DNA of 64,000 nt, from NCBI GenBank assembly GCA_009392915.1, contig CP045477.1, forward strand, positions 768,001-832,000, given 5' to 3'. The notes beneath the pieces are model-generated. The model was not told where the DNA came from and did not search any database. It worked only from the letters and a program-made list of their open reading frames with translations. A program made the position numbers and the translations under genes. Positions 3,101-51,461 of this stretch are shown in pieces (within the stretch, counting starts at the first letter, position 1; each line of letters opens with the position of its first letter). This DNA comes from Candidatus Forterrea multitransposorum CG_2015-17_Forterrea_25_41 (GTDB taxonomy: Archaea > Iainarchaeota > Iainarchaeia > Iainarchaeales > CSSED10-239).

Positions 3101-3175
<75 letters not shown>

Positions 3176-4394: not shown

Positions 4395-4514
4395 TTTTTC
4401 TTACTTTTTAGTTATGTTTAATTTACAAATAAAATAGAAATTATTTATAAATGTTTAGTATATATATTATATAGTATAATCTTTTTATATATTAGGTTTG
4501 TACAATATAAAAAA

Positions 4515-4588: not shown

Positions 4589-4622
4589 CTTTCTATTATT
4601 TTTTATTTTAAAATAATTATTA

Positions 4623-4697
4623 GGGCTCGTAGCTCAGTCTGGTAAGAGCACTGGACTCTTAATCCAGGTGTCGTGGGTTCAAATCCCACCGAGCTCA
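4623..4697 (+). tRNA. tRNA-Lys (anticodon CTT)
   Basis: Near-duplicate of the previous tRNA, with anticodon loop CTCTTAA. Confidence 0.8.
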
Positions 4698-4722
4698 CTT
4701 CCTTAATACTTTAAAAAATAAT

Positions 4723-4796
4723 GGTTCCGTAGCTCAGCCTGGGAGAGCAATAGGCTGAAGACCTATGTGTCGTGGGTTCAAATCCCACCGGAGCCA
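4723..4796 (+). tRNA. tRNA-Phe (anticodon GAA)
   Basis: GGTTCCGTAGCTCAG...ATAGG-CTGAAGA-CCTAT...GGTTCAAATCC...CGGAGCC-A. Confidence 0.75.
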
Positions 4797-5407
4797 TATT
4801 TTACTTTTTTTATAAAAATAATTTCTTCATCTGTTTCTATTGCTTTTCTGGCATTATCAAAAACTTGTTTATTTATTTTTATATTTTTATTAATTAGGTT
4901 TGTTTCTGGTGAATGAATTATTATGTTATCTACGTCATATCCTGTAATTATTATGAAGTGGCCTTGAAATGCACCTTCTTTTTGAAATAGTTTATTGTAA
5001 TCTACTAATATTATCGGTACATATCCATCATTGATTTTTGTTAATATATTTTCTATTGTAATTTTTTGTTCGTATATCTTAACATTTAACATTTTTGCTG
5101 TATCATACATTTTTTTAATATTAATTAATATTTCATCTTTTAAAAATGGATTTGCTGTTAAAGAAAATTCGTCTTCTGGCAATTTAATTTCAGTTGTTTT
5201 TGTATAAAATTCAACATCAAAACCAAATTGTTTACTGACTAGTGCTAATTGCAAACTATATAATCCTTTTCCTTCTTTATAACTTAATTTGTGCTTAATT
5301 TCTTTATTTGATTTTTCTTCTTTAAAATAAGCATACACCATTTTTAGTGCTATTGGGCCGCAATCAAATTTTTCGTCTTGTTGATAATAAGGTATGTTTA
5401 AGTTCAT
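4778..5407 (-). CDS. Papain-like cysteine peptidase, C39-like domain protein (standalone)
   Basis: Catalytic Cys in QQDEKFDCGPIALKMV and His in QGHFIIITGYD. The 3' end overlaps tRNA-Phe by about 19 nt. Confidence 0.45.
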   Translation of the reverse strand: MNLNIPYYQQDEKFDCGPIALKMVYAYFKEEKSNKEIKHKLSYKEGKGLYSLQLALVSKQFGFDVEFYTKTTEIKLPEDEFSLTANPFLKDEILINIKKMYDTAKMLNVKIYEQKITIENILTKINDGYVPIILVDYNKLFQKEGAFQGHFIIITGYDVDNIIIHSPETNLINKNIKINKQVFDNARKAIETDEEIIFIKKVKYGSGGI

Positions 5408-8024: not shown

Positions 8025-8034
8025 GTGAAAATAT

Positions 8035-9789
8035 ATGTTAATTAAAAAATTATCTCAAGAAACCATTAATTTAATTAGTGCTGGAGAAGTAATTGAAGGT
8101 CCAAGTGATATTTTAAAAGAACTTTTAGAAAATTCTGTGGATGCTAAAGCAACAGAGATAACTGTTGAAATAAAATCTTCTGGTTTAGATTTAATAAAAA
8201 TAAAAGATGATGGTACTGGTATTTTAAAAGAAGATTTAGAAGTTTGTCTTGAAAAATACACTACAAGTAAACTTGAAAAAATAGATGATTTATACACTAT
8301 TGATAGTTTTGGTTTTAGAGGTGAGGCATTATCAACTATTGCTGCAGTTTCAAAATTTAAAATTGTATCTTCTACTACAAATGATGGTAAGGGATATGTT
8401 TTAGAGAATAACAATATTTCTCAAGTATCTTCAAACAAAGGAACAACTATAACAGTTCAAGATTTATTTTATAATGTGCCTGTTAGAAAAAAGTTTTTAA
8501 AATCAAAAAGCTTTGAATATTCTAAAGTATATGAAGTTTTTCTTGCAAATGCTTTATTAAATCCAAATATTACTTTTAAGTTTATTTCTGAAAAGAAAAA
8601 TGTAATTTTTCCAAAAACAGATTTTGAAAATAGATTAGTTCAAATATATGGTGTTGAAATTAAAACTAAAACAATTAATTTAGATATTAATACAGAATTA
8701 TTTAAAGTTAAAGGAATTTTAACTAATCCTCAAAATCCAGTTTATTTTCCTTCAAATTTTTTATTTATTAATAAAAGATTTGTATTTTCACCTCAAATCT
8801 ATAAAGCTATTATTGATTCTTATAAAGATTATTTAATGATACAACAAAAACCATTTTTTATTTTATTTATTGAGTTAGATCCTAGAACAATAGATGTGAA
8901 TGTACATCCTAAAAAAAGAGTTGTTAAATTACAAAATGAAATGTTGTTTTTATTAGAGTTTAAAAGAGAATTATCTAAAAAATTAGATGCATCTTTAGGT
9001 AAATTTGCTCCTGCTTTAGAGCATAATTCTTTAAAAGATTTTATTTCTTCTAAAAATTCAGATTATTCTTCTTTTCAAAAACCAACTCAAAGTAGTTATT
9101 CAAGTAATAACTATTCAAGTAATAAAGAAGTTCCTTTTTTCAGAAGTGATCTTCAAAAACCACTTTATGAAAATAACAATATTTCTAGTATTTCAGATAA
9201 CTTAACTTTATTTGAACACAATATTACAAAAATACTTGGTCAAATAAAAAACACCTTCATTATTTGTGAAACTGATAAAGGGATGATATTAATTGATCAA
9301 CATGCTGCTGATGAAAGAATAAACTTAGAAAAAAATAGATTGAAATATGCTGATTATGTTGAAAAACAAAATTTAATATCAGAAATTTCTTTAGATTTTA
9401 TTTCTGAATCACATAAAGAAATTTTAGCAAATAATATTGAAATTTTTAAAAAAACTGGTTTTGAATATTATTTAAAAAATGATATTTATTTTTTAAAAAC
9501 AATTCCTTTATTTTTAAATAAATATTTTGATAAAAACTTATTTTTAAATCTTTTAAAAGATATTGAAGAAGGCAATAATGAAGTTTTTAAACTTAAAGAT
9601 AGTCTTTTAAAATTAAGATCTTGTAAAGAATCTATTAAAGCTAATGATTATTTAAGTAGTCATGAACAAATAGAAATTATTAAAAAATTAAATCTTTGTA
9701 AAGATAAAGGTATTTGTGCTCATGGAAGACCAACAATTATATTTTTATCTTTAAAAGATCTTGAAATATTATTTAAAAGAATAGTTTAA
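8035..9789 (+). CDS. mutL: DNA mismatch repair protein MutL with C-terminal endonuclease motifs
   Basis: GHKL ATPase motif ELLENSVDA; endonuclease motif DQHAADERINLE; C-terminal CAHGRP. Confidence 0.8.
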   Translation: MLIKKLSQETINLISAGEVIEGPSDILKELLENSVDAKATEITVEIKSSGLDLIKIKDDGTGILKEDLEVCLEKYTTSKLEKIDDLYTIDSFGFRGEALSTIAAVSKFKIVSSTTNDGKGYVLENNNISQVSSNKGTTITVQDLFYNVPVRKKFLKSKSFEYSKVYEVFLANALLNPNITFKFISEKKNVIFPKTDFENRLVQIYGVEIKTKTINLDINTELFKVKGILTNPQNPVYFPSNFLFINKRFVFSPQIYKAIIDSYKDYLMIQQKPFFILFIELDPRTIDVNVHPKKRVVKLQNEMLFLLEFKRELSKKLDASLGKFAPALEHNSLKDFISSKNSDYSSFQKPTQSSYSSNNYSSNKEVPFFRSDLQKPLYENNNISSISDNLTLFEHNITKILGQIKNTFIICETDKGMILIDQHAADERINLEKNRLKYADYVEKQNLISEISLDFISESHKEILANNIEIFKKTGFEYYLKNDIYFLKTIPLFLNKYFDKNLFLNLLKDIEEGNNEVFKLKDSLLKLRSCKESIKANDYLSSHEQIEIIKKLNLCKDKGICAHGRPTIIFLSLKDLEILFKRIV

Positions 9790-10979
9790 ATCTTTACAAT
9801 CCATATAAATAAAAATACTGTAATTATTAATAAAATAGTGATTGCTGTATTTTCAGAAGAATCTGGGTTTTCTGAATTAATGCTAATTGTTTGAGTACCA
9901 ATATTTTTAACATTTTCTCCTTCTAAATAATTAATAGTAAAATTTAAGGTGTGTTCTCCTTCTTTATATGTTTTAATTATAAATGGTATTTCAACAACAT
10001 CTTTTGGTCTAATTAGATTTATTTTTTCTTGAGATACAATTATTTCTCCATTAAAATAAGGTTTGATATATACATCTGTAACTTCTTTTTCTGAATTGTT
10101 AATAATAATTAAATGACCAGTTTGTTCTTCTTTTGGTACAATTATTTTTTGAATATCTATATGATTTTCTAAAGCATTTTCTTTTTCTGAAATAGTTATT
10201 ATTTTTTGTTTAATTTTTTTTGTAATTTCTTGGTTAAAAACATCTGTGTATTTAAGATTTGCAATAGGTGTTGCAAATGTGTTATTTGAATCTGTTTTTA
10301 CAAAATAATCTATTTTTATTTCACTTTGAGCTTTAAGCAATCCTTCAAAACTTGTTTCTCCAGAAACATTTTCTAAATTAGAATTATATATGAATAAATT
10401 AGATGCATTTTTAAGTTCAATAAAAGTATCTGCATAACCACTATTTCTTACGTGAATAGTAATAGGTATTAAAGTATTAACATATGCTGTAGAAGGTGCA
10501 TCTTGATAAAAATCTTCATCAGTTATTTTTGAATTATAATAAGTTCCAATTAAACTATCTGAATCTATAATTAACCTTGGTAAAAAATTATTTTCAATAC
10601 AAATTTCTAATTTGTTATCAATTGAATCAAATTTTCCTAATTTTATAATATTTTTTTCTTTAATCTCTTTATCAATTATTTCTGTAATATTTTTATCATT
10701 TACTTTAATGTTGATTATAACTCCTTTAGAAATAGGTATATAATTTTTAAGCATTAATTGAAAATAAGTTTCTGAAAACTCATCAGATTTTAAATTAAAA
10801 GTAAAATCTTTACAAAAACTACTTCCTTTTTCAACAACAATATCACCTTTATCTAATATATTTAAAGTGGTTTCATCAATAGTTGTTGCTAATAATGAGT
10901 TTGAAATTAAGATAATTCCAATAATTAATAAAAAATACTTATAATTCATATATACTTCACAATATATTATATCTAACAA
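9786..10979 (-). CDS. Secreted/surface protein with an N-terminal signal peptide and a C-terminal transmembrane anchor
   Basis: Hydrophobic N-terminus (FLLIIGIILISNSLLA) and C-terminal TM segment (AITILLIITVFLFIWIVKI). No recognisable enzymatic motif. Confidence 0.4.
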   Translation of the reverse strand: MLDIIYCEVYMNYKYFLLIIGIILISNSLLATTIDETTLNILDKGDIVVEKGSSFCKDFTFNLKSDEFSETYFQLMLKNYIPISKGVIINIKVNDKNITEIIDKEIKEKNIIKLGKFDSIDNKLEICIENNFLPRLIIDSDSLIGTYYNSKITDEDFYQDAPSTAYVNTLIPITIHVRNSGYADTFIELKNASNLFIYNSNLENVSGETSFEGLLKAQSEIKIDYFVKTDSNNTFATPIANLKYTDVFNQEITKKIKQKIITISEKENALENHIDIQKIIVPKEEQTGHLIIINNSEKEVTDVYIKPYFNGEIIVSQEKINLIRPKDVVEIPFIIKTYKEGEHTLNFTINYLEGENVKNIGTQTISINSENPDSSENTAITILLIITVFLFIWIVKI

Positions 10980-10998
10980 TTAATTTATATTCTTATCT

Positions 10999-13900
10999 TT
11001 AATGTCTTAATATTTTTTTCTTTTTCTCAGCTATGGTTTTTTCTTTCTTTTTATTACCCAACCTTAAATAAGCATATAAACTAACGAATAAAACTACAAT
11101 AATTGTAATTAAAATATATTGTGTTTTTGTTGAATTTTTCGAAACAGGATTTGTTTGTTTTAAAACATAAATTACATCAAGATATTTTTCATCATCATAA
11201 TTTGTTTTTGCAAAATTAAGTGTTTCAACATCATATTCTTTTTTTTGATAATCTATTATTTCTTTTTTAGCATCATCTTTTATTTCAATTAAACCAGAGG
11301 TTAAATTATCATAATCTGATTTTATTTTTTCAATTCTATTTATTGTTTCTAAAGAAATGGCATTAAGTGCACCTTTGTAGTCTTTTTCATTATATTTTTC
11401 ATCAAAGTTAGATAATTCTTTATTGAAAAGTACACTTTCTAAAAAAGCATAATTTTTTTCTAATCTTTTTGCATCGTTTTCTGTAATTCCAGAAAAATAC
11501 CCAATTGAATAAAGATCAGTTAAAGTATATGTTTCATATAACAAATATGTTTTTGTAATTATTTCATTAATTTTGTCTTCTTCTAAATTATTTGTTATTG
11601 GGTTAATGTAATAATAAAGTTCTTCAGCTTTTTCTTTTAGTTTCTGATTAATTATATCTTTAATTTCTGTAATGTTTTTATCTTTACTTAATAAATCTAA
11701 ATCTATGTTTTCTAAATTATTTTCATTAATAATTTCATTAAGTTCTTTAAATTCAGCAATTTCTAAACTTTTAGTGTCGTTTTGTAAGTCCTTTTCTCTT
11801 TTTTTAATATCTATTAATAACTGTATTAAATCTTTTTCTGCTAAAACCATATTTTGATATTTATTACTTTCTATTTTTTCTAATTTGTTTTCTTCAAAAG
11901 AAGTTAGTTCTTTTTGATAAATCTCATTTAAAGTAATTAAATAATTTTCTTCAATAATTTGATAATGTTTGTTTTTTTCTAATAGTTTTTGTAAGGTGTT
12001 ATAATAACTGTAAATAGTTTCTATTTCATTAATACTATATTCTTCAGAATATGGTTTGTCCAACAAATATTTCAATTCTTTAATTGATTCTTTTTGAATA
12101 TCTAAAAATCTAGTGTTTCTAAGCTCTTCTGCTGCTAAAATTATTTCTCTAATTTCTTCATAAACTTTATTCTTTTCAATTAATGTTTTTAAAACAAATT
12201 CTAAAACTTCATCTTTTTTAATCTCTATATTATAAATTAAGTTTCCATTTTCTTCAAATAAAGTAATTTCTTTATTATTTTTATAAAAAGTATTAATTTC
12301 GTTTTCTTTAGTTTCTTTAATAATTAATTTTTGATTAATTTTTTCAAAAAATTTATTCTTTAAAGAAATATTTGTTGTTGTAATAAATTTATCACTACTT
12401 ATTTCTTCAATATTTTTAGATAGGTTATTTTCAAATACAGGTCCATAGACATAAAATTCATTTTCTTTTTTTGTATAATAATAAATATTATTTTCTTCTA
12501 TAATAACATCTTCATTTTTAGATATAAATCCATCAATAAATAAAAGTGAATCATATATTCCTTCTACTTCGTTTTCAATTGTAATTTTAATAATACTTTC
12601 TTTTAATGATAAATAAATTATTTCATAATTTATATTTTTATTATTCTCATAATCTACTAAGAAATAATTTTTACCAGGATATATAGTGTGTATCTTTATT
12701 TGTGTTTTATTAATAAGTAACCCAGGATCTTTAGATACTAGGTTTAAATAATTATTTTCTATTTCAATATTTAAAATAATTTCAGAGAAGTTATTTATTA
12801 ATTCAAAATAATATTTATCATCTATTTTTTTAATAGTGTAGTTTTTATTTTCTTGAATGATCTTTTTAATGATTAAATCTATTTCTCTTTCAATATTATT
12901 TATTTTTTCTTGATTTTCATTAATATTTATAATTAACTCAACATTATTTTTTTGTTTTATTTCCTTTACATCTTTTTCAATTTCACTAATTATTTCATAA
13001 TTTTCTTCAAGTTTATTTTCAACATATATTTCATTAATTTTATTTTCTATTTCTTTAATTCTTTTTTTAATTATAATTATTTTTTCATTACTTTCAAGTT
13101 TATAATTTATGTTGTTAATGTGTTCTAAACAATCTTCTTCTGTTGAATAAATATATAATTCATAATCTTTAACTTCTTCAATTTCGCTTTCAATAACACT
13201 ATAAATTAACTCTTGGCAATTTTGTATTTCATTTGCATTTTTTATTTTTTCACAATAATTTAATTTTTCAAGAAGATTGTCACTTTCTTTATATTGACTA
13301 ATTAATCTTGATATATATAGATTACTTTGTTCTTCTAGATTTTCAACTAAAATATCACAAGCAAACAGTTGAGAGTTTTCTAACTTTTCTTTTTCAACAA
13401 TTTCTTGGTTTTGTAAAATTTCTAAATTAATTTCTTTTAATTCTGATAAATATTTTCCAAAAGTAATTGTTTTATTTTCAAAGTAATTTTTTTGTTTTAA
13501 ATAATAATTATATTTTTCAGTAGTTAAATATTCTTTATTTTTTTCAATTTCTTTTTGATAATCTTCTATTTTATTATAAATTACATCTAAATTTTCAGTT
13601 ATTCTATTATTAATAATTATAAATTCTGTAACTAATGATTTTTCTTTTCCAACCAACTTATCCATTAAAATATAAAAATTATATCCATCTAGTTTATCTA
13701 AATTATAGTTTATGTTTCTTAAATCTTCTATGTTAGATAATTTTTTATATACAAAATTATTTATTCTTAAAATTTCAGGAAGATTAATTTCTTGTGAATT
13801 AATTTCTTTTTCATAGATTTGTAAATAATACAAAGTTAGATCAGATACATTTTCTTTTGCAAGATAGGTTTCTCTAAAACCTAATTCTTTAGAATATACA

Positions 13901-14487
13901 TGTAATTCTTTAATTTCTTGATTTACTTTTGATAAATAACTTTCATTTTCTATTTGTTTTTTCATAAAATTAATATTATCATTTAATAATATATAATCTT
14001 GAAATATTTCTTCTTCAGGAATTAGGTTAACTTCTTGCTGTTCTAAAAATAAGGTATAATCAATAATAAGATACATGCTTTTTTTAGTTGCATTATCAAC
14101 ATATGAAAAGGTTTTAGAAAAAAGGTCCATTACATCATTATAATTATCTAAAATTGTTTTGATGTTCTCTTTTCTACACCCTTCATTCAATAAATCTAGT
14201 TCTTTTTTAGTAAGTGTATAATAATAATGACTGGATGCTAAGTAATTTTTATAAGTATCTATATTTTGACTTAAAGAAAGAGGTATTTTGTTATTTTTTT
14301 CAATAGATAATTTTTCAATTTCAGTAAAACATTTATTTTGAGAAGTACAATCATCAATAGAAGTAGAGGAATAATGAGTTAAAGCAAGACAAGCTTGCTT
14401 TTCTCTAGTGGTTATAAATTCAAGGCAACCTGAAAGGCTTACTAGTAAAATCAATAAAAAATATATGTATATTTTTTTATCAATCAA
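10999..14487 (-). CDS. Giant (1162 aa) coiled-coil surface protein. It has a signal peptide with a lipobox-like LSGC, an N-terminal Cys-rich region, and a C-terminal TM segment plus basic tail.
   Basis: Extremely E/K/N/I-rich heptad-like sequence throughout. C-terminus ILITIIVVLFVSLYAYLRLGNKKKEK. Confidence 0.4.
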   Translation of the reverse strand: MIDKKIYIYFLLILLVSLSGCLEFITTREKQACLALTHYSSTSIDDCTSQNKCFTEIEKLSIEKNNKIPLSLSQNIDTYKNYLASSHYYYTLTKKELDLLNEGCRKENIKTILDNYNDVMDLFSKTFSYVDNATKKSMYLIIDYTLFLEQQEVNLIPEEEIFQDYILLNDNINFMKKQIENESYLSKVNQEIKELHVYSKELGFRETYLAKENVSDLTLYYLQIYEKEINSQEINLPEILRINNFVYKKLSNIEDLRNINYNLDKLDGYNFYILMDKLVGKEKSLVTEFIIINNRITENLDVIYNKIEDYQKEIEKNKEYLTTEKYNYYLKQKNYFENKTITFGKYLSELKEINLEILQNQEIVEKEKLENSQLFACDILVENLEEQSNLYISRLISQYKESDNLLEKLNYCEKIKNANEIQNCQELIYSVIESEIEEVKDYELYIYSTEEDCLEHINNINYKLESNEKIIIIKKRIKEIENKINEIYVENKLEENYEIISEIEKDVKEIKQKNNVELIININENQEKINNIEREIDLIIKKIIQENKNYTIKKIDDKYYFELINNFSEIILNIEIENNYLNLVSKDPGLLINKTQIKIHTIYPGKNYFLVDYENNKNINYEIIYLSLKESIIKITIENEVEGIYDSLLFIDGFISKNEDVIIEENNIYYYTKKENEFYVYGPVFENNLSKNIEEISSDKFITTTNISLKNKFFEKINQKLIIKETKENEINTFYKNNKEITLFEENGNLIYNIEIKKDEVLEFVLKTLIEKNKVYEEIREIILAAEELRNTRFLDIQKESIKELKYLLDKPYSEEYSINEIETIYSYYNTLQKLLEKNKHYQIIEENYLITLNEIYQKELTSFEENKLEKIESNKYQNMVLAEKDLIQLLIDIKKREKDLQNDTKSLEIAEFKELNEIINENNLENIDLDLLSKDKNITEIKDIINQKLKEKAEELYYYINPITNNLEEDKINEIITKTYLLYETYTLTDLYSIGYFSGITENDAKRLEKNYAFLESVLFNKELSNFDEKYNEKDYKGALNAISLETINRIEKIKSDYDNLTSGLIEIKDDAKKEIIDYQKKEYDVETLNFAKTNYDDEKYLDVIYVLKQTNPVSKNSTKTQYILITIIVVLFVSLYAYLRLGNKKKEKTIAEKKKKILRH

Positions 14488-30561: not shown

Positions 30562-31755
30562 ATGTTGTTTCTAATTAAAATCAAAAGGTTTTTATTCTTT
30601 TTAAATAATGTTTTATGTATGATTTCTTTAAATTATAAATCTATCTCACCTTTAATTTCTGTAATTTTATTAATTGTTGTATCTATTGCTTTTATAGGTG
30701 TAATTACCAATTGGAGTAAAAGTTTTGTTATAACGAATTCAGAAAAAGTAGATTTAATAAAAACAAATAATTCTTTAGATCAATTTATTGTTATAGATTC
30801 TTTTTATGATTCTGAAGAAAATTCAAGTATTATTTTAAAAAATAACGCTAATAAAAATATTGTGCTTGAAAATTATAAATTTATAAACGGGGAAGGTGAG
30901 TTTTATAATCAAGAATTTGTAATTTCTGGAGATGATGTTTTAAATAAAGGTAATTTATTAAAAATAGATTTAATTTGCTTTCCATCAAATAATTTAGATA
31001 TTCTTTTTAAAACAACAGATGGAGATTATTTTAAAGTTAATTTAAAAAAATCTATTTTAAATATAAATTATTGTCATAATGATTTTAAAAATCAAAAAGT
31101 ATATTCTTTTGAAGAATTGTTAGAAAAGAATCTTTTAGATGTAAATAGTTATTATTTAGATGTAAATGGAGATTTAAATTTACCTGAAATAGATGATTTT
31201 ATTATAAAAACAAAATTTAAATTAGATTCAGTCTCTGGCTATCAAACATTAATTTCATATAAATATTCTGGTGTTTCAGGTTATGGTTCAGGACAAAGAG
31301 GTGGATTTAAATTTATGGTTCTTCCAAGCGGTAATTTTGCAATTGTAGGTAGTCAAAATGGTGGTTCTTTATGGTGGGGTTATTCTGGAGGAGATCCTGG
31401 ACAAACACCCCCTTTAGTTTCAAATAAGTATTATGATTTAATTTATCATAAAAATGGTCGTTTAATTAATTTGTGTCTTAAAGATAATATAGATTATAAT
31501 TCTTTTTTTTGTAACGAACCTTGGTATTATCCTTATTATGATATTACAAACATCTATTATAGTGACAATCCAACATATAATTATAAATCAATAATTGGTG
31601 CTACAAATTATGGTTTAGAAAATACTTTTTTAGATTATTTTAATGGATCTGTTGAATATATTGAATTGTATGAATATTCTGAAGATAATAATATATCTTC
31701 AGTAAACAACCTTCCTTTAAATAATTATATTTTTAAAATAGATTTAACAAAATAA
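30562..31755 (+). CDS. Archaeal type IV pilin-like protein with a class III signal peptide. The likely start is MISLNYKSISPLIS...
   Basis: YKSISPLISVILLIVVSIAF matches the archaeal prepilin N-terminal consensus (K/R-G/S-ISPLIATVLLI). Confidence 0.6.
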   Translation: MLFLIKIKRFLFFLNNVLCMISLNYKSISPLISVILLIVVSIAFIGVITNWSKSFVITNSEKVDLIKTNNSLDQFIVIDSFYDSEENSSIILKNNANKNIVLENYKFINGEGEFYNQEFVISGDDVLNKGNLLKIDLICFPSNNLDILFKTTDGDYFKVNLKKSILNINYCHNDFKNQKVYSFEELLEKNLLDVNSYYLDVNGDLNLPEIDDFIIKTKFKLDSVSGYQTLISYKYSGVSGYGSGQRGGFKFMVLPSGNFAIVGSQNGGSLWWGYSGGDPGQTPPLVSNKYYDLIYHKNGRLINLCLKDNIDYNSFFCNEPWYYPYYDITNIYYSDNPTYNYKSIIGATNYGLENTFLDYFNGSVEYIELYEYSEDNNISSVNNLPLNNYIFKIDLTK

Positions 31756-31762
31756 GTTTAAT

Positions 31763-32626
31763 TTAAAATTTTTTATCTAAAATTTCTTTTAAAGTGATGT
31801 TTGGGTACCCTTCCATTTTTCCACCAAAACTTGGGTAGACTAATATTTTTTTATCAGGGTTTTCATCCATTAGTTTTTCTATGATTTTTTTTTGTTCATC
31901 ATAAGATTGATGTTGGTTAAATAAAAAGATGATTACATTTGCAAGTGTTTTTATTGCAACAACAGCTTGTTTTTCAATAAAGTTCATGTCTTTAAAATCT
32001 TCATGAATAAGCCCTGGTGTATCGACTACTTGAATTATTTCTTCTCTTTTTTTATAATATCCAAAATTTAAAGTTTTAGTTGTGAAAGAATAACTATTAA
32101 TTTCAGGATCTGCGGTCGTAATTTCTGCAAGCAAAGTTGTTTTTCCTGTATTTGGAGCTCCAACTAAAACAACAGTAAATAGTTTTTGAGGGTTTGGTAT
32201 TGCTCTAAAATATTTTCCATATCCCATTAATATTTCATTAGTACCATCTAACTTTTTAAGCATTGATTTTATTCTTCCTAAATATTCTTTTTTTAATTTT
32301 AGTTTATCTGTATATTTTTTTTCTCTTTTTACAAATCTTTTATATTTTTCAGAAATGGAATTTATTAAATGAATTGTTGTAATATAGTGATTTTTATATT
32401 TATCTAAAACTTTTTCTTGAACAATATTTTTTGACATTAATAAATAGTATTCATCCATTTTTGAATAATCTGGAAGTGATGAATATATATGTGTAAGTCT
32501 ATCTGCAATTTTATTATGCACAAAATTAACATAGTAAAGCACATCTTTTTGATTATATTCTTTTTTTATTTTATTTACTATAATTTCTAAAAAAGAATCT
32601 GCTTTAATAATTTCTGGGAATTTCAT
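31763..32626 (-). CDS. NOG1-family (Obg-like) GTPase
   Basis: G1 motif VLVGAPNTGKTTLL, G2 FTTKTLNFGY, G3 DTPG. N-terminal NOG1-N-like helical region. Confidence 0.55.
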   Translation of the reverse strand: MKFPEIIKADSFLEIIVNKIKKEYNQKDVLYYVNFVHNKIADRLTHIYSSLPDYSKMDEYYLLMSKNIVQEKVLDKYKNHYITTIHLINSISEKYKRFVKREKKYTDKLKLKKEYLGRIKSMLKKLDGTNEILMGYGKYFRAIPNPQKLFTVVLVGAPNTGKTTLLAEITTADPEINSYSFTTKTLNFGYYKKREEIIQVVDTPGLIHEDFKDMNFIEKQAVVAIKTLANVIIFLFNQHQSYDEQKKIIEKLMDENPDKKILVYPSFGGKMEGYPNITLKEILDKKF

Positions 32627-32788
32627 ATTGTTTTCTTATTTTTTAAGTTGTTCTTAATAATATATTTATAGTTCATTTAATTTATAAACAGTAGTAATTT
32701 GATTTTAAAAAAATTATCATTTAAGCTTACCTTTTTATATTTTTCTTATATTATGTTATATATTTATATAATTATTTATGTGTAGGAT

Positions 32789-35122
32789 ATGTTTGCTATT
32801 TCAAAAAAAGGAATAAGTCCTTTAATTGTAACTATTTTAATTGTTGTTGTAATAGTCATTATTGTGTCTGTTTTATTATTGTGGGGTAAATCTTTCACTT
32901 TAGATAATTTATCTCTTTCTGAAAGAGTTTTTGAAAAATCTAGTCTTTCTGATTTTGTTTGGCAAGATAATTTATTTGAAAAAAATTTATTTATTAAAAA
33001 TACAAATTCTAAATTAGGTGCGTCAATTATTGGTTATAAAATAAATAGTTCCTTAGATTATCCTTTTTTAAATGAATATAGATACTTAGAAACTGAAGTT
33101 TATTTGGGAAAAAACAGTATTGCAACAATTCCTTTAGTTTGTATTCCTGAGAAAAATTTTACAATAGAATTAATTACTTCCAAAGATGAGTATATTACTG
33201 TGCCTGTTACTTCAAAGTCTTTTGATGCAAGTGATTGTACTTTTAAAGGAGAAATTACAAATCCTTCTGAAGATTTTAGTATAAGGTCTGGAGATTCTAT
33301 TTTGTTTGACTCTTTGGCATTAAATACTTCTGGGAATGAAACTTATTTATGGGTATCTGATAAAGATGGAACTTTAAGTACTGATAAAAATTTTACAATA
33401 AGTTCTTTATCTGTAAACAATCATTTAATTACTTTAACAATCACAGATTTTAATTCAACTATTGAAAAATCTTTGTCTGTTGTGATTCATCCTCCTTTAA
33501 GTTTAAGTATTTTATCTCCAATTGATGATTCTGGTTTTTTAGTAAACACCTCTATTGATTTTAATTCAATTATTGATAATAATTTAGGTGATTATTCTTG
33601 TAATTGGCAATCAAATCTTGATGGTTTGTTAAGCACCAATTGTATTTTTAATTCTTCAAGTTTATCTGTGGGTAATCACACTTTAACTTTAAATGTAATT
33701 GATGATGTAGGAACTAGTAGTGTTACTTCTGATATTTTAGTTAAGAATAGTTTTACACCAATCATTAGTTCTCCTTTAGAAGATTCTATTTTTGTAGTAG
33801 GAAATAACATAAATTTAATTGGTACAACAATTAATTCTTTTGGAACTTATACTTGTTCTTGGGATTCAAATATTAATGGAAGTTTAGGTACTGGTTGTAA
33901 TTTAAATGTTGATGATCTAAACATAGGTGCTCATGAAATAACTTTAAATATAACAGATGATTTAGAAACAAAAACTGCAGTAACAACTATTGTAATTAAA
34001 GATCATTTACTTCCAGAAATAGTATCTCCTATTGCAAGTTCTACTTCAACAGAAGGAAATACAGTTAATTTTTTAGGGAGTGCAACTAATACATATGGAA
34101 GTTACACTTGTTCTTGGGATTCAAATCTTGATGGAAATTTAGGTGTTGGTTGTGATATAGATGTTTCTGATTTAACTTTAGGAACTCATGAAATAACTTT
34201 AAGTGTAACTGATGATTTAGAAACTGTTTCAATTTCTCAAATTAATTCTGTGATTGTTATTGTGTATGTTGATGATTTAATTAATTTAGTTTTCAGTGAT
34301 AGTGTTACAGGTTATTCTTTTTCTGGTAGTACTTATAATTATAATGATTTATTAATTTTAAATAGTTCTAATACTGTAACTGTTACTCCGACTGGGGCTG
34401 GAACAATAACTGTAAATGGTTCTACTGTTTCCTCAGGTTCTCCATCAAGTCCTATTGATTTAAGTGATGGTACTGAAAAAACAATTACCATAGAAGTTAG
34501 TGATGTTGATAAGTATTCTAAAACTTATACTTTGAGATTAACTAAAATAGTAACTACTGGTGGAACCATAACTAATGGTACAGGTTATAGAATTCATAAA
34601 TTTACTTCAAATGGATCATTTACCTCTAACATCCCATTAACTGCTGAACTTTTAGTTATTGGTGGAGGTGGAGGTGGTGGTGGATATGATGGTGGTGGTG
34701 GTCGTGCCGGAGCGTTATATTATAGTGCATCTTATTCAATACCTTCAGGTTCAACAAATGTTGTAATTGGTGCTGGAGGTCTAGGTGTAAATTATACAAA
34801 AGGATCAGCAGGTACTGCTTCTTCTTTTGGAGCAATATCTAAAGCTGGAGGTGCTGGTGGGGCTTTAACAAGTCCTAAATCTGGTGGTGCAGGTTGTGGT
34901 GGTGGAGGAAGTGCCTTTAATGCAGGACTGGGTTATGGTCTTGAAGGTCCTGGTTGTACATATAGTATTACAGGAACTCCTGTTGTATATGGTCTAGGAG
35001 GAAGAGGAGGTAATGGAGGGAGAACAGATGGTGCTACAAACACAGGATCAGCAGGTTGGGCTGGCGGAACTAGAGGTGGTCATGGTGCTGATGGAGTTGT
35101 AATTGTTAGAATAAATTCTTAG
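32789..35122 (+). CDS. Large type IV pilin-like adhesin. It has a class III signal peptide, four ~90 aa Ig/PKD-like repeats and a C-terminal glycine-rich module.
   Basis: N-terminus KKGISPLIVTILIVVVIV. Repeats share the motif YTCSWDSN..G.LG.GC...V.DL..G.HEITL.VTDD. The C-terminus is about 40% Gly (LLVIGGGGGGGGYDGGGGRAG ... GADGVVIVRINS). Confidence 0.6.
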   Translation: MFAISKKGISPLIVTILIVVVIVIIVSVLLLWGKSFTLDNLSLSERVFEKSSLSDFVWQDNLFEKNLFIKNTNSKLGASIIGYKINSSLDYPFLNEYRYLETEVYLGKNSIATIPLVCIPEKNFTIELITSKDEYITVPVTSKSFDASDCTFKGEITNPSEDFSIRSGDSILFDSLALNTSGNETYLWVSDKDGTLSTDKNFTISSLSVNNHLITLTITDFNSTIEKSLSVVIHPPLSLSILSPIDDSGFLVNTSIDFNSIIDNNLGDYSCNWQSNLDGLLSTNCIFNSSSLSVGNHTLTLNVIDDVGTSSVTSDILVKNSFTPIISSPLEDSIFVVGNNINLIGTTINSFGTYTCSWDSNINGSLGTGCNLNVDDLNIGAHEITLNITDDLETKTAVTTIVIKDHLLPEIVSPIASSTSTEGNTVNFLGSATNTYGSYTCSWDSNLDGNLGVGCDIDVSDLTLGTHEITLSVTDDLETVSISQINSVIVIVYVDDLINLVFSDSVTGYSFSGSTYNYNDLLILNSSNTVTVTPTGAGTITVNGSTVSSGSPSSPIDLSDGTEKTITIEVSDVDKYSKTYTLRLTKIVTTGGTITNGTGYRIHKFTSNGSFTSNIPLTAELLVIGGGGGGGGYDGGGGRAGALYYSASYSIPSGSTNVVIGAGGLGVNYTKGSAGTASSFGAISKAGGAGGALTSPKSGGAGCGGGGSAFNAGLGYGLEGPGCTYSITGTPVVYGLGGRGGNGGRTDGATNTGSAGWAGGTRGGHGADGVVIVRINS
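33490..34270 (+). repeat. Intragenic tandem repeats of ~270 bp with high nucleotide identity between adjacent units
   Basis: Near-identical runs at 33851 and 34107 (tacttgttcttgggattcaaat...catgaaataactttaa...gatgatttagaaac). Confidence 0.6.
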
Positions 35123-35285: not shown

Positions 35286-36356
35286 ATGAAATTTTTTACA
35301 AATAAAAACTATTCTAAAATGATAATTATACCTTTAGTTATTTTAATAATATTTATTTTAATTGCATTTATTTTTCCAGGTATTGAAAGAGGTATTGATC
35401 TTAAAGGAGGAAATCAAATAATCGTACACTATCCTCAAGAAAAAGATTACACTTCTTTAGAAACTGCTCTTGTCGAAAAATATAATATTTCTCAAATACA
35501 AGTAAATGAAGTTAAAAGTATAAATGAATATGGACTTTTAATTGAATTCTCTCTACAACAAGATCTTGAAACTGCTAAAGCAGAAAGATCAAAATTAGAT
35601 TTTACAAAAGATTTAGAAATTTTAAAACAAGATTCTATTGTTCTATTAACTCCTTTAAAGGAAAGAGGTTTTTTAACAGAAAATGATTTAACTTCTATTC
35701 AACAAATAAATAACAAAGATGAATTAAGTTCAAAAGTTTCAGAAAACATAAGTCTTGCAAATAATAGTTTTTATAATCAAGTTACAAATCTTGTTAAATC
35801 AGAATTAGATTTAGCAGAAGATGCAAAAATACAAACTAGAGAAATCGCACCTACTTTAGGAAAAGATTTTGTAAATAGTTCTGTAAAGGTAGGAATTGTT
35901 GCATTTTCATTATTATTAATTGTTATTCTTTTATTCTTCAGAGAGATTGTTCCATCAGGATTAATTATTTTTGCTGTTATTTTTGATGTGTTTGCAGCTC
36001 TTGCAGGTATGGCTTTATTTAATATACCTTTAAGTTTAACCACAATTCCTGCTCTCTTAATGCTTATTGGATACTCTGTTGATACAGATATTCTTTTAAC
36101 AACAAGAATTTTAAAAGATGGTAATAGAAATCCAATTGATTCAGCAAATTCTTCAATTGCAACTGGGCTTACCATGACTTTTACAACAATGGCAACTATT
36201 CTTGTAATGCTTATAATTTCTTATTTTGCACAGATGTTTATTATCTTAGAAATTTCTGTAATATTATTATGTGGTCTTGTTGGTGATGTAATTTCTACAT
36301 GGCTTTTCAATGCACCTGCATTAATTAAATATGCAAAAAGGAAACATAAAAATTAA
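35286..36356 (+). CDS. secF: Protein-export membrane protein SecF
   Basis: N-terminal TM segment, then GIDLKGG, then a C-terminal 5-6 TM RND-like domain (IPALLMLIGYSVDTDILL). Confidence 0.65.
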   Translation: MKFFTNKNYSKMIIIPLVILIIFILIAFIFPGIERGIDLKGGNQIIVHYPQEKDYTSLETALVEKYNISQIQVNEVKSINEYGLLIEFSLQQDLETAKAERSKLDFTKDLEILKQDSIVLLTPLKERGFLTENDLTSIQQINNKDELSSKVSENISLANNSFYNQVTNLVKSELDLAEDAKIQTREIAPTLGKDFVNSSVKVGIVAFSLLLIVILLFFREIVPSGLIIFAVIFDVFAALAGMALFNIPLSLTTIPALLMLIGYSVDTDILLTTRILKDGNRNPIDSANSSIATGLTMTFTTMATILVMLIISYFAQMFIILEISVILLCGLVGDVISTWLFNAPALIKYAKRKHKN

Positions 36357-36376: not shown

Positions 36377-38008
36377 ATGAGAACATTAATAAAAAAACCA
36401 ATAATTATTTTTTGGATTATTTTAATAATCATATCTTTAGTTTTACTTTTAACTAATGGTTTAAAATTTGGAGTTGACTTTAGTGGTGGAACTGCTTTTC
36501 AAGTAGTTTTAGAAGAATCAGTATCTTCTGAAGAACTAGCACAAGCTGCATCTATTTTAGGTAGAAGACTTGATTGGTCTGGTTCAAAAGATGCAAGAGT
36601 AACTCCTTCTGGAAGTCAATATATAACTATACAGATTGCTGAATCTGATCCTGATGAAATTGCAAGTTTAAGAAGCGCAATTTTAAAACAAGGAAATTTT
36701 GAAGCAGTTTTAAATGGGGATGTTTTATTTTCAGGTGAAGATATAAAATCAATCTATAAAGATCCTTCTAGAGGTTATGGAATTTCAGAAGTTTCAAAAG
36801 GTGTTGACTATCAATGGTCTCTTCCGTTTTTATTATCTCCTGATTCTGCAAAAAGATTTGCAGAAATGACTTTCCATAAATGTACTCCTACTGGAATTTC
36901 TTCTGGTTCTTTAGATGAAAGATATGAATGTGATAAAACATATTTCTTTGTTGACAGACCAGTAGATAGTATAATATTAATAGATAACTTAACTTTTACA
37001 GAAGAAAAAGAAGTTCCTGTAATACCTGGACTTTATTCTTCTTTCTTTCCAATTGAAGATCTTTTAGATCAAGTAACTTCTCCGTATTATGTTATTGATG
37101 GAAATTTATCTGCAGAAGATGTTTCAAGTTTAACAAAAGACTTAGAAAATTATTCTAAAGTAATTGTTTCTCCAGGAATAACTAATAACGATGTAAATTC
37201 TTTAAAAGAACTTGGTTTTAAAGTAATCTCTATTGAAAAACAAGAAAACCTTCCATGGATTTGGAGTGTTACAGGTTTAAAATCTGTAATTTCTATAACT
37301 CCTGGAATTGCAAACATGGATGTTTCAAGTATGGAATCTTCAAGATTTCAAACTTTTTCTCAACTTAATATTACAGGACATGCAGAATCATTAGAAGCTT
37401 CTCAAGCAAGACTTGATGATTTATTATTAATTTTAGAATCAGGTTCTCTTCCTATTGCAATTGACAGTATAAGTACAGAATCAATATCTCCATTTTTAGG
37501 AAAGCAATTTTTAAATACATCTTTGCTTATTGGTTTGTTTGCTATTCTTACTGTTGCAGTTGTTTTATTTATAAGATATAAAAGATTTAGTTTAGCTGCA
37601 CCAATTATCTTAACAGCCTCAAGTGAAATTTTAATTCTTTTAGGAATACTTTCTCTTATGAGTTTTAGACTTGACTTAGCTGCTGTTGCTGGTATTTTAG
37701 CAACTATTGGAACTGGTGTTGATGATAATATTATTATCATTGATGAACTTTTAAGAGGCAAGAAAAAAGATGAGCATGAACATCATGAAAGTCTTTTAAA
37801 GAAAATTAAGAAAGCTTTCTTTATTATGTTTGCTGCTGCTGCAACTGCTGCTGCAACAATGTTCCCAATCATTTTCTTTAGTTTAGGTCTTGGAAAATTA
37901 GTTGGTTTTGCTGTAACTATTTTAATTGGTACTGCAATAGGTGTATTTTTAGTAAGACCAGTTTATGCACAGATTGCAAGAAAAATAGTTGCTGAAGAAG
38001 GAAAATAA
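36377..38008 (+). CDS. secD: Protein-export membrane protein SecD
   Basis: GVDFSGG, a large periplasmic domain and a C-terminal 6-TM domain (AGILATIGTGVDDNIII). Follows secF, as in archaeal secFD operons. Confidence 0.65.
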   Translation: MRTLIKKPIIIFWIILIIISLVLLLTNGLKFGVDFSGGTAFQVVLEESVSSEELAQAASILGRRLDWSGSKDARVTPSGSQYITIQIAESDPDEIASLRSAILKQGNFEAVLNGDVLFSGEDIKSIYKDPSRGYGISEVSKGVDYQWSLPFLLSPDSAKRFAEMTFHKCTPTGISSGSLDERYECDKTYFFVDRPVDSIILIDNLTFTEEKEVPVIPGLYSSFFPIEDLLDQVTSPYYVIDGNLSAEDVSSLTKDLENYSKVIVSPGITNNDVNSLKELGFKVISIEKQENLPWIWSVTGLKSVISITPGIANMDVSSMESSRFQTFSQLNITGHAESLEASQARLDDLLLILESGSLPIAIDSISTESISPFLGKQFLNTSLLIGLFAILTVAVVLFIRYKRFSLAAPIILTASSEILILLGILSLMSFRLDLAAVAGILATIGTGVDDNIIIIDELLRGKKKDEHEHHESLLKKIKKAFFIMFAAAATAAATMFPIIFFSLGLGKLVGFAVTILIGTAIGVFLVRPVYAQIARKIVAEEGK

Positions 38009-38022: not shown

Positions 38023-38454
38023 TTATTTTTTAAGTGTTTTAAGTATTAGATAAAGTATAACTAACCCCATTGCAAACCAAAAGAGTATGTGTGCTATTTT
38101 TGAAACACTTAAGCTTATCTTTTCTGCAAGTAAAACTAAAACTATTCTTAAAAAGTTAGCTATCCATAGCAAAAGAACACTCAAAAGTATCCACTTAATT
38201 TTACTATTTTTATTTAATGTTATTTTTGATGAGATTATTATTCCTAGATAAACAGAAATGCTAATTACTCCGCTGCATATTGGTACAAAAATAAAAGGTT
38301 CATAATTTAAGAAGTCTCCAAAAATACTTCTTATTAAATATTCCCATAGATTAATCAATGGAGTTGCAATTGTTTTAAGAAATATAAAACTTAATAAAGT
38401 GTATATTATTGTAAAATAAATAATGAAATTAATTGTTTTTTTATCTAGGTGCAT
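38023..38454 (-). CDS. Exosortase/archaeosortase-family membrane protein, unusually short (143 aa)
   Basis: Active-site-like Cys in FVPICSGVIS within a TM segment and Arg in WIANFLRIVL, matching the Cys/Arg signature of the family. Confidence is limited by the short length. Confidence 0.4.
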   Translation of the reverse strand: MHLDKKTINFIIYFTIIYTLLSFIFLKTIATPLINLWEYLIRSIFGDFLNYEPFIFVPICSGVISISVYLGIIISSKITLNKNSKIKWILLSVLLLWIANFLRIVLVLLAEKISLSVSKIAHILFWFAMGLVILYLILKTLKK

Positions 38455-42647: not shown

Positions 42648-43916
42648 TTATTCTTCTATTTTTTTATCTAACATCAAAAACATAATGTCTTTTCTAGTAA
42701 CATATGCTTGGACATTAAAATTAATTATTTCTTTATTTATATCTTCTGGATATTCAAGCCATACAGGGTATGTTTTTTCAGAATAAGTATATTCTTCTTC
42801 TTGTAAAGTTATTTTTTCAACATCCAAGATAGCTTCTTTTTCAATTTCTTCAAGTTCTAAATCTAATGGTGTTATTTTTTCAATAATATTTTCAATTTCT
42901 ACAGAACTTTCAAGAAGATATTTTTTTTCAAAATCTTTTACTTTATTTTCTTCTAAAAATCCATTTTCAATTAATTTTTCTTTTATTTCTGTATAGTTAC
43001 TAAGGTTATAGTCAGCTATAAAACTAATTTTTATTTCTTCTATGTTTTTATCAATACTTTCAATTTCACTAATGTTTAAATCTTCTTTAGAAACATTAAT
43101 GTCAAGTCCTTGATACACTAAACTATAATCTGGAACAATTGTAACTTTTTCAATTTCGTTAATTTTTTCTTTAATTGAGTTTTCATCATTATCATTAAGA
43201 TAATTTGTTTTTGTAGAATATCTATATTTTTCATTCCATTCTAAAATATTAATTTCTTGTTCATCAAAAACAAGAGAAGGTGAGCTTGTAAGGTTAGTTG
43301 TTTCATAAAGTATAACATACTCTAAAACTTCTCCTTTAAAACTTGCTTGTAATTGTCCTTGGATATTATCTTTTTTAAGAGTATTAACATTTACAACTGC
43401 ATCAACTATATAATCTACAAAATCATAATCCATTGTTTTGTTTTCATCACTTGTTGCTCTAAAATTAACACTATTGTTAATTTCAACTCTTGCTTGTTTA
43501 TATATTTCAATAGGCTCTGAAGTTAAATATTCTAAATTATTTATTTCTGTAATTATTTCTTCTTGAAGTAAAGGGTCAATTACAATTTTTGCAATCAATA
43601 TTATTTTTTCTTCAGAATCTTTATTAAATTGTATACTTGATCTTTTAACTCCTTCAATTGCAATTAAATCATTTTCTATTTTTGTTTGTTCAAAAACATC
43701 TGTATTACTTGCAATTATTAATTCTGAAAACATTTCTGAAACTATTGCTTCAGTTTCCCCAACATACATTTCTGAAGGTATGTTTAAATCTTCTTCAAAA
43801 TCTTGATATGTTGTATCTACATCTGGTCTTGCCCCAATTGACATACCTACAATAGATCCTAAAATTAATACTACTAATAAAATTGAAAGTCCTGCTTGTT
43901 TATTCATATTTTTCAC
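42648..43916 (-). CDS. Secreted acidic hypothetical protein with an N-terminal signal peptide
   Basis: MKNMNKQAGLSILLVVLILGSIVGMSIGA followed by an E/D-rich domain. Confidence 0.35.
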   Translation of the reverse strand: MKNMNKQAGLSILLVVLILGSIVGMSIGARPDVDTTYQDFEEDLNIPSEMYVGETEAIVSEMFSELIIASNTDVFEQTKIENDLIAIEGVKRSSIQFNKDSEEKIILIAKIVIDPLLQEEIITEINNLEYLTSEPIEIYKQARVEINNSVNFRATSDENKTMDYDFVDYIVDAVVNVNTLKKDNIQGQLQASFKGEVLEYVILYETTNLTSSPSLVFDEQEINILEWNEKYRYSTKTNYLNDNDENSIKEKINEIEKVTIVPDYSLVYQGLDINVSKEDLNISEIESIDKNIEEIKISFIADYNLSNYTEIKEKLIENGFLEENKVKDFEKKYLLESSVEIENIIEKITPLDLELEEIEKEAILDVEKITLQEEEYTYSEKTYPVWLEYPEDINKEIINFNVQAYVTRKDIMFLMLDKKIEE

Positions 43917-50759: not shown

Positions 50760-51461
50760 TTATCCTCTGAATAAAAATAATTTTAGATACCCAATATATG
50801 GTATTCTTAATATTTTTTTACCCATTAAGTTTTCAACATTAATTGGATAAACATTTAAACAACCATTCACAATATAGTTTCCTGAAATTGCACAATCTTG
50901 ATCAATAATATAATTTGTTTCTCCATTATCTCCTTTGGTTAAAACATATTTTCCATCATTTGCATTAATAATTAAAACAACTCTATGAATAATATCTCTG
51001 CCAGTAAGATTTGATTTATAGACTACTACTGAATTATTTTTTTCAATAGCGTCTTTAATTTCAATAATTTGATTATTAATTTCTATTGTTTTAACTTCAT
51101 TGTTTCCATAACTATTTAATTTATATTCCATTTTTGCAAATTCACTTAAATTTTTAGTTGAAATATTTTCATCAATAGTAATTATTTCTGATTTTAAATT
51201 TTTAGCAGAAGATATAACCATAATATCTCCTCTATAAAAACTAGGCTCCATTGATCCAGAAACAACTGTTGCAAGAGGAAGTGAAGTTCCTAAAATTAAT
51301 CCTAATAATTTAAAAATAATAAATGCTAAAATAAGAGAATAGACTAAATAAAAAATCCAATACATTATTTTTGTATCTAAACTTTTAGGTTTTCCAAAAA
51401 GTCTTAAAAGAAGTGTATCTATGTAATAGTATGGATCTAAATATTTTAATCTATCTTTCAT
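50760..51461 (-). CDS. Signal peptidase I (archaeal Sec11/S26B type)
   Basis: VVSGSMEPSFYRGDIMV contains the catalytic Ser box. N-terminal TM segment. Confidence 0.7.
   Translation of the reverse strand: MKDRLKYLDPYYYIDTLLLRLFGKPKSLDTKIMYWIFYLVYSLILAFIIFKLLGLILGTSLPLATVVSGSMEPSFYRGDIMVISSAKNLKSEIITIDENISTKNLSEFAKMEYKLNSYGNNEVKTIEINNQIIEIKDAIEKNNSVVVYKSNLTGRDIIHRVVLIINANDGKYVLTKGDNGETNYIIDQDCAISGNYIVNGCLNVYPINVENLMGKKILRIPYIGYLKLFLFRG

Follow-up and report, generated by a model that had tools for sequence, protein, structure and literature searches.

Modular type IV pilin-like proteins with candidate adhesin heads encoded by the archaeon Candidatus Forterrea multitransposorum

The closest described analogues of the two proteins analysed here are the modular type IV pilins PilB and PilC of Streptococcus sanguinis (PDB 7oa7 and 7oa8; PMC9934059). 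Bacterial modular pilins that carry vWA or lectin modules are located at the pilus tip (PMC9934059). Class III signal peptides of archaea occur on pilins as well as on further exported proteins, and their processing takes place on the N-terminal side of the hydrophobic domain (PMC6098224, PMC2910488). The proteins in question are encoded by two plus-strand open reading frames (ORFs), ORF1 (30619..31755) and ORF2 (32789..35122), in a stretch of 64,000 nucleotides of Candidatus Forterrea multitransposorum CG_2015-17_Forterrea_25_41 (assembly GCA_009392915.1, contig CP045477.1, positions 768,001 to 832,000 of the forward strand), referred to below as the window. A shared N-terminal sequence motif, homology to archaeal pilins, the predicted folds and a modular family with swapped heads are the grounds on which we propose that both products are modular type IV pilin-like adhesins, probably borne on a pilus.

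Like PilB and PilC, ORF1 and ORF2 combine a pilin moiety with an independently folding module grafted onto its C-terminus, as can be seen from their domain maps and from the exchange of modules within their family; in addition, ORF1, like PilC, has a module that is predicted to be of the lectin type (ConA-like). In contrast to PilB and PilC, the pilin moieties of ORF1 and ORF2 are archaeal: they have no E5, they start with [ILV]SP[LI]I, and they are related to archaeal and not to bacterial pilins. Neither protein shows detectable sequence homology to PilC. The genes of ORF1 and ORF2 are also located outside a pil locus, and nothing in PilB or PilC corresponds to the glycine-rich head of ORF2. 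By analogy, the comparison suggests that ORF1 and ORF2 may be archaeal counterparts of the bacterial modular pilins.

Archaeal type IV pilins for which filament structures have been solved include those of Pyrobaculum calidifontis (8fk7, 8rey), the Aap pilin of Sulfolobus acidocaldarius (8q30), Iho670 of Ignicoccus (5kyh), and haloarchaeal PilA (8gi2, 9myg). ORF1 and ORF2 share with them a short basic leader, a predicted cleavage site before an [ILV]SP[LI]I-ATILL helix, and a fold composed of this helix and a beta-sandwich. However, these pilins are filament subunits of 130-300 amino acids (aa), whereas ORF1 has 230 and ORF2 has 630 residues in addition; moreover, ORF1 and ORF2 score under the Pilin_N cut-off, and the residue at position -1 of their family is mostly Ser. 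Bindosome-type proteins are likewise large globular binding proteins whose prepilin-type N-terminus serves surface display and not the building of long pili. In contrast to ORF1 and ORF2, whose heads are lectin, Ig or glycine-rich modules of the adhesin type, they are solute-binding proteins of ABC transporters, have no conserved pilin beta domain, and are encoded together with transporter genes.

ORF1 would be 397 aa long if read from its first ATG (30562), and 378 aa long from the likely start M20 (30619), which is the start in public gene calls. Started at M20, it has an 8-residue leader, as ORF2 does. The 378-aa protein is 100% identical to NCP79717.1 of NCBI, which is named 'hypothetical protein' there, and it is present on many metagenomic contigs in public assemblies, up to a contig of 839,632 bp. 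The initial annotation of the window had given about 380 aa for the first protein and 777 aa for the second, and both lengths hold. It had also assigned archaeal class III (prepilin) signal peptides to the N-terminal strings YKSISPLISVILLIVV and KKGISPLIVTILIVVV. Both strings were confirmed in the two ORFs, and the assignment is supported by the conservation of the motif in the family, the profile matches to PDB sequences, the starts of deposited filament chains and a Foldseek match, as described below.

The leader/mature junctions read MISLNYKS/ISPLI in ORF1 and MFAISKKG/ISPLI in ORF2. The predicted class III leader of ORF1, MISLNYKS, occupies 30619..30642 (+), with the cleavage before I9 placed by the alignment of the family with solved pilins. 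In ORF2, leader and pilin domain together (residues 1-150) occupy 32789..33238 (+): KKG is followed by ISPLIVTILIVVV, then by W32-G-K-x-F36 and by a beta domain with the conserved C118 and C150. Both proteins thus show the class III arrangement of a basic leader ending in G, A or S at -1, with K or R at -2, ahead of a hydrophobic domain. The pattern [KRQ][GAS]x[STA]P[VILM][IVLM] was found just twice in the six-frame translation of the 64 kb, namely at the N-termini of ORF1 and ORF2.

In an alignment of ORF1, ORF2 and five homologues, the invariant positions are ISPLI, I16, L17, V20, W32, K34, F36 and the cysteines 118 and 150. Information content in 147 relatives peaks at positions 6-37, where the conserved pattern is K6-K/R7-[S/A/G]8-[I/L/V]9-S10-P11-[L/I]12-I13-A-T-I-L-L-I-V-V ... 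W32-G33-K34-x-F36-T; the residue at -2 is Lys in 109 of them and Arg in 26, and the residue at -1 is Ser in 89, Ala in 43 and Gly in 13. The hydrophobic stretch comprises about 24 residues, contains no small-x-small site and continues into the conserved W-G-K-x-F. Conservation that begins ahead of such a stretch fits a class III signal; for a class I Sec signal, the reverse would be expected (PMC6098224, PMC2910488). Ordinary Sec signal peptides, which the initial annotation had named as the finding that would speak against it, were not seen in either ORF on inspection of the sequence only, conservation peaking before or at the start of the hydrophobic stretch. In the filament structures deposited as 8rey, 5kyh and 3j1r, the first residue of the chain is the one that aligns with I9, and cleavage is accordingly predicted at S8/I9 in ORF1 and G8/I9 in ORF2. 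That the two N-termini are pilin-type can be regarded as very likely.

The similarity to pilins extends past the helix. The pilin domain comprises residues 9-145 of ORF1 (AlphaFold model and family alignment) and residues 9-150 of ORF2; the two N-terminal domains are homologous, with 27% identity over the first 161 residues (BLASTP E 2e-5). A profile built from seven sequences and compared with PDB sequences matched 8fk7 at E 2.4e-4, and seven of its nine matches at E <= 10 were archaeal type IV pilins. With a profile of 42 sequences, the E value for 8fk7 became 5.5e-7 over 115 positions, well past the helix, and 8rey was matched at E 3.2e-4; all seven PDB matches at E <= 1 were archaeal type IV pilins. 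The AlphaFold model of ORF1, made from the 42-sequence alignment, has a helix at residues 11-43 and a sandwich at residues 57-143, with a predicted local distance difference test (pLDDT) score of about 90. Its top Foldseek match in the PDB is again 8fk7, the type IV pilus subunit of Pyrobaculum calidifontis (E 3.5e-5, TM-score 0.51 on target), and the Aap pilin of S. acidocaldarius was also among the matches. The depositors' label of 8fk7, 'Flagellin', denotes a flagellar-like type IV pilus. Archaellin identity of ORF1 and ORF2 was considered and rejected, as no archaellin family appeared in the Pfam and NCBIfam scans.

The C-terminal parts of the two proteins are different. In ORF1, the pilin domain is followed by a poorly modelled linker (residues 146-190) and by a head (residues ~190-378) for which AlphaFold predicts a ConA/LamG-like lectin fold; this head had been missed in the initial annotation. 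ORF1 has no Pfam match, and the homologue search found only two homologues of the head. The closest of them, P0020, is a metagenomic protein of 502 aa with 49% identity to the head, and its N-terminus is MLFKNKKAQGNLETLLMIGG. This is a different class III-like N-terminus, KKAQG/NLETLL, which resembles the QxSxExxxL of the EppA/DUF361 type. As the N-termini of P0020 and ORF1 differ, one and the same head is carried on two prepilin-type N-termini.

In ORF2, the pilin domain is followed by a stalk of four tandem PKD/immunoglobulin (Ig)-like domains (33245..34270, +; residues 153-494), which were delimited by Pfam, AlphaFold and repeat alignment. The four Ig/PKD-like repeats of about 90 aa read earlier from the sequence are those at residues 153-237, 238-321, 322-406 and 407-494, each 84-88 aa long and with pairwise identities of 31-46%. 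One of them passes the Pfam PKD (PF00801) cut-off, with 28.6 bits against 23.5. Structure prediction for the repeats, which the initial annotation had proposed as a check, gave an Ig-like sandwich for all four (AlphaFold, pLDDT 80-90), and repeats 2, 3 and 4 each contain a pair of cysteines. Repeats 3 and 4 (33684-34225) are 73% identical in DNA over 290 nt, which points to a fairly recent internal duplication in the stalk. The number of PKD repeats varies among ORF2 homologues.

A fifth beta-sandwich, not noticed before, follows the stalk repeats: residues 499-585 (34283..34543, +) match the Cadherin-like family PF12733 with 34.5 bits against a cut-off of 24.2, and the AlphaFold confidence of this region is low. 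The glycine-rich C-terminal module of the initial annotation corresponds to the distal head at residues 606-775 (34604..35113, +), which matches PF21722, Gly_rich_2, with 38.0 bits against 24.3. This head also matches PHROG 2295 (E 8e-17) and PHROG 863 (E 3.9e-7), which is of the category 'tail'. Phage tail proteins (PHROG 863 'tail fiber assembly', PHROG 2295; Gly_rich_2) carry glycine-rich domains whose profiles match the distal 170 residues of ORF2, and there, too, the domain is at the end of an elongated protein. A link between Gly_rich_2 and the receptor-binding domains of the polyglycine-II type in gp38 adhesins of T-even phages is conjectural. No sequence relative of the glycine-rich head was found in the PDB, a homologue search returned only short unnamed metagenomic proteins, and no mention of PF21722 was found in the literature. 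When the complete ORF2 model was compared with known folds, the matches were only generic tandem-Ig proteins; the stalk resembles tandem-Ig adhesion molecules.

The composition of both proteins fits export. K+E amounts to 6.6% in ORF2 and 11.6% in ORF1, in comparison with 18-22% in cytoplasmic proteins of the window, and ORF2 has an S+T content of 24%, 17 N-x-S/T sequons for N-glycosylation and paired cysteines in its repeats. The only hydrophobic segment in ORF1, and likewise in ORF2, is the N-terminal one.

A profile of 152 N-terminal positions was scored against 1.84 billion cluster representatives. At E <= 1e-3 it matched 820 proteins with lengths of ~100-1271 aa, and 171 of them also pass E <= 1e-10. 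At least 820 clusters therefore share this N-terminal domain, and their C-terminal heads differ (LamG, GLUG, RCC1, Kelch, Lcl_C). The close homologues of ORF2 retain the pilin domain and the PKD stalk, and their terminal modules vary: FGE-sulfatase of the C-type lectin (CLec) fold, Lcl_C, Kelch and RCC1 were found. In 95 more distant members, the heads include Laminin_G_3 (25), GLUG (14), RCC1 (9), DUF285 (5), Lcl_C (5), the chitobiase C-terminal domain (4) and pentaxin (3). LamG being the commonest head among these 95 members, ORF1 with its LamG-like head represents the commonest architecture. Several differently headed members are present per genome: ORF1 and ORF2 in this one, and, on one contig of a close relative, the ORF2 orthologue P0001 together with a Kelch-headed paralogue. 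One complete family member of 178 aa, found on contigs shorter than 2 kb, is little more than a pilin domain; it is a candidate filament-forming subunit and a better candidate for a major pilin than ORF1 or ORF2. Apparently, the family is unannotated, with 'hypothetical protein' as the sole public name encountered and with curated pilin models staying below their cut-offs.

Two homologues of ORF2 have genes of diversity-generating retroelements (DGRs) beside them. DGR targeting is a hallmark of ligand-binding surface proteins or receptor-binding proteins. P0006, which is 50% identical to ORF2 over the pilin domain and stalk, consists of pilin domain, PKD stalk and Lcl_C head; its gene (L003, 10001-11632) is followed by bAvd (11860-12234) and by a reverse transcriptase (RT) gene (12428-13945), and the whole spans 10001-13945. 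The last 109 nt of the P0006 gene form the variable repeat (VR, 11524-11632), and a copy with 79% identity to them, the template repeat (TR, 12391-12499), is located where the RT gene starts. Adenines of the template copy account for 30 of the 44 VR/TR mismatches, the compared stretch including short flanks. Given the adenine-biased mismatches together with bAvd and the RT, P0006 is a DGR target. P0004, which has an FGE-sulfatase head and is 53% identical to ORF2 over the same part, also has bAvd downstream (L012:7303-10658).

The variable proteins of DPANN DGRs, such as AvpA, have a C-type lectin fold (PMC4372165, PMC5006420, PMC8144416), and in this they are like the CLec-fold heads of P0004 and P0006 (FGE-sulfatase and Lcl_C), whereas ORF2 itself has no CLec head. 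ORF1 and ORF2 were also considered as DGR targets; this was rejected, as the window contains no template repeat of either gene and no RT motif. No mention of pilin-type N-termini on archaeal DGR targets was found in the DGR literature examined, including that on nanoarchaeal DGRs. The architecture of P0006 suggests that at least some archaeal DGR targets are displayed via the type IV pilin pathway.

From these data, we infer the following route for ORF1 and ORF2. Both would enter the membrane via the Sec system, and the 8-residue basic leader would be cut on the cytoplasmic face, between S8 or G8 and I9, by a prepilin (class III signal) peptidase; the hydrophobic helix of ~24 residues would be kept on the mature protein. 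The helix and the small beta-sandwich would form a pilin moiety that has homology to the type IV pilins of archaea and that could dock with other pilins. The most likely place of the proteins would be that of a minor or tip subunit in a type IV filament whose ATPase and platform would be encoded elsewhere in the genome. The working ends would be C-terminal, a ConA/LamG-type lectin domain in ORF1 and the glycine-rich head atop a five-sandwich stalk in ORF2. In an episymbiotic archaeon of the DPANN type, the probable ligands would be glycans or proteins of the host-cell surface. The adhesin role, which was part of the initial annotation, draws support from the presence of lectin, Ig and glycine-rich modules and from the swapping of heads in the family. 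All in all, we consider it probable, if well short of certain, that ORF1 and ORF2 are pilus-borne modular adhesins.

Several observations weigh against a place on a pilus, or against parts of this picture. Pilin_N (PF07790) stays below its cut-off of 25.2 bits, with 10.9 bits for ORF1 and 12.9 bits for ORF2 (E 0.2-0.9), and the sole NCBIfam pilin match, to UpsA, is weak (16 bits against 130, E 0.008). The Pfam and NCBIfam scans covered both the whole proteins and the N-terminal 144-150 residues, and homologue profiles were needed for a clear pilin signal. In favour of a pilin moiety, on the other hand, Pilin_N is reached at E <= 1e-3 by 6 of 95 members of the family, with a best value of 2.9e-5; judged by these sequence scores, the family is at the edge of the Pilin_N model, and it is classed here as pilin-like, outside the curated Pilin_N family. 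Ser is the most frequent residue at position -1 of the family (89/147), and Gly or Ala is usual there in characterized archaeal substrates. Parts of the ORF1 head are modelled at low to moderate confidence (pLDDT 45-79), and the C-terminal third of ORF2 is modelled at low confidence, the model of the glycine-rich head (pLDDT 20-50) being unreliable. A subunit of 777 aa cannot pack as a repeating major subunit, and therefore its incorporation into a filament is argued by analogy with the bacterial modular pilins.

The position of the genes also weighs against the proposal: ORF1 and ORF2 are placed singly among housekeeping genes, outside any pilus operon. A prepilin peptidase (A24), a PilB/FlaI-type ATPase and a PilC/FlaJ-type platform were not seen in the 64-kb window, either in the ORF lists or in Pfam scans of 18 of its proteins (eight from the surroundings of ORF1 and ORF2, and another ten that are mostly membrane proteins or uncharacterized), in agreement with the earlier remark that the window holds neither a prepilin peptidase nor an assembly ATPase. 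According to gene tables, genes of the pilus machinery are likewise not found within 10 kb of the Kelch-headed paralogue, the DGR-linked homologues or the ORF2 orthologue. Machinery genes were also not found on three contigs of ~4 kb with relatives in a single-protein search of genome contigs. Type IV filament systems have been reported in some DPANN archaea (bioRxiv 10.64898/2026.04.22.720090; PMC6393860), which makes such machinery plausible for this organism.

Isolation from any pilus locus also speaks for another explanation, in which ORF1 and ORF2 would be pilin-like but not pilus-borne, the leader being cut and the helix holding the protein in the membrane, or in a short assembly similar to a bindosome or pseudopilus under or within the S-layer, with the Ig stalk pushing the head outward. 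We regard this as possible, though not as what should be expected. Class III signals are documented on substrate-binding proteins and proteases, the bindosome being a named precedent (PMC2910488); a stalk of five sandwiches suits a membrane-anchored adhesin that crosses the S-layer; and a family that is very large and has diverse heads recalls a general scaffold for display rather than a group of tip pilins. However, conservation in the family extends to a full pilin-type beta domain with two cysteines, which matches filament-forming pilins over 115 positions, and a near stand-alone version of this domain exists, as would be expected if it polymerizes. Moreover, a type IV ATPase and a platform are required for a bindosome as well, and therefore this explanation differs from a pilus-borne adhesin in geometry and not in pathway.

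The two other explanations considered take the proteins further from, or closer to, an ordinary pilin. If ORF1 and ORF2 were ordinary Sec (class I) secreted proteins, or had an uncleaved N-terminal signal-anchor, their likeness to pilins would be that of any hydrophobic N-terminus. The Pilin_N scores under the cut-off, the presence in the window of a signal peptidase I-like gene (50760-51461; S24/S26-like, Pfam scan) and of SecDF genes, and the failure to find a prepilin peptidase in the ORF lists and Pfam scans of the window would agree with this. Nevertheless, we consider it very improbable: conservation is strongest before or at the start of the hydrophobic stretch and not after it; this stretch of ~24 residues runs into W-G-K-x-F without a small-x-small site; profile matches continue beyond the helix into a solved pilin's beta domain, and the significant PDB matches are all archaeal pilins; the predicted three-dimensional match is a pilus subunit; and the N-termini of further exported proteins in the window, which are short and of the Sec or lipobox type, look different. 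It is just as hard to believe that the two proteins are major structural subunits, polymerizing into a thick filament coated with Ig, lectin or glycine-rich outer domains, on the pattern of filaments whose subunits have large outer domains. Their pilin domain is complete and well conserved, and archaeal pilins are not always small, as the Ignicoccus pilin Iho670 (PDB) with its 303 aa indicates; but the steric demands of 630 outer-domain residues in every subunit would be extreme, each genome has several members of the family that differ in their heads, the bacterial modular pilins are minor and tip-located (PMC9934059), and the short pilin-only family member is the better candidate for a major pilin.

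The window has a G+C content of ~23% and contains archaeal housekeeping genes, including both subunits of DNA polymerase D, EF-1alpha, the ribosomal proteins S10, S3Ae and S15, and SecDF. Between ORF1 and ORF2, the Pfam scan revealed an unrelated GTPase gene of the NOG1/Obg type (31763-32626, -), which the initial annotation had passed over. The gaps from each pilin-like gene to its neighbours are 135-165 bp, and owing to this spacing ORF1 and ORF2 look monocistronic. An ORF2 orthologue with 61% identity is in the same position of a related genome, adjoining the GTPase gene. Given this conserved position, the gene is stably inherited and is not on a mobile island.

Downstream of ORF2, a SecF-like gene (35286-36356) is followed by a SecD-like gene (36377-38008) and by a gene of the exosortase/archaeosortase family (38023-38454, -; TIGR04178, 32.5 bits against a cut-off of 23), so that the SecDF and exosortase-like genes are where they had first been placed. 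The archaeosortase-family product, a membrane protein of 143 aa, is unusually short for its family, and sortase models of the heimdall, pace and XrtX types match it weakly. A link between this gene and ORF1 or ORF2 was rejected, as neither has a C-terminal anchor: the maximum Kyte-Doolittle value in the last 60 residues (window of 19 residues) is 0.28 in ORF1 and 0.48 in ORF2. As both proteins lack a C-terminal sorting signal, the nearby archaeosortase-family gene has other substrates. The gene at 9786-10979 (-) encodes a large exported protein of 397 aa with a weak CARDB match and a single C-terminal hydrophobic segment; the adjoining gene at 10999-14487 (-) encodes a protein of 1162 aa with a lipobox-like N-terminus (LSGC), a long K/E-rich body resembling a coiled coil and, again, a single C-terminal hydrophobic segment. 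These two proteins are possible archaeosortase substrates or surface-layer components.

Further features of the window can be noted. The 422-aa product of 42648-43916 (-) has no Pfam match; its N-terminus, MKNMNKQAGLSILLVVLILGSIVG, is basic and is followed by a long hydrophobic segment without an ISPLI-type motif, and it may be a signal-anchor protein or another exported protein. A tRNA cluster at 3100-4797 comprises tRNA-Met(CAT) on the minus strand and then, on the plus strand and within 283 bp of each other, tRNA-Lys(TTT), tRNA-Lys(CTT) and tRNA-Phe(GAA). Identified by reading their translations only are a Cdc6/Orc1-like protein and a CDC48-type AAA ATPase, a tyrosine-recombinase (XerC/D-like) ORF at the left edge of the window (7-756, +), and a MutS-MutL gene pair of the bacterial type (5481-9789, +), which is notable in a reduced archaeal genome.

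Most surface proteins of DPANN archaea are annotated as hypothetical. ORF1 and ORF2 are concrete candidates for proteins by which these archaea attach to their hosts, and if the proposal made here is true, the modular pilin design worked out in Streptococcus sanguinis extends to archaea. The pattern K-[SAG]/[ILV]SP[LI]IATILL...WGKxF provides a sequence handle with which the family can be found in DPANN genomes. Tentatively, it can be imagined that these proteins belong to a large family of modular type IV pilins which extends across DPANN archaea and has not been described before, in which a universal pilin socket receives swapped heads (lectin, GLUG, RCC1, Kelch, DUF285 and glycine-rich modules like those of phage tails), some of them hypermutated by DGRs, and which serves as a host-recognition apparatus of episymbiotic archaea. 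If such a family exists, it would explain the location of archaeal DGR targets that are apparently unanchored: they would be on pili or on pilin-type anchors.

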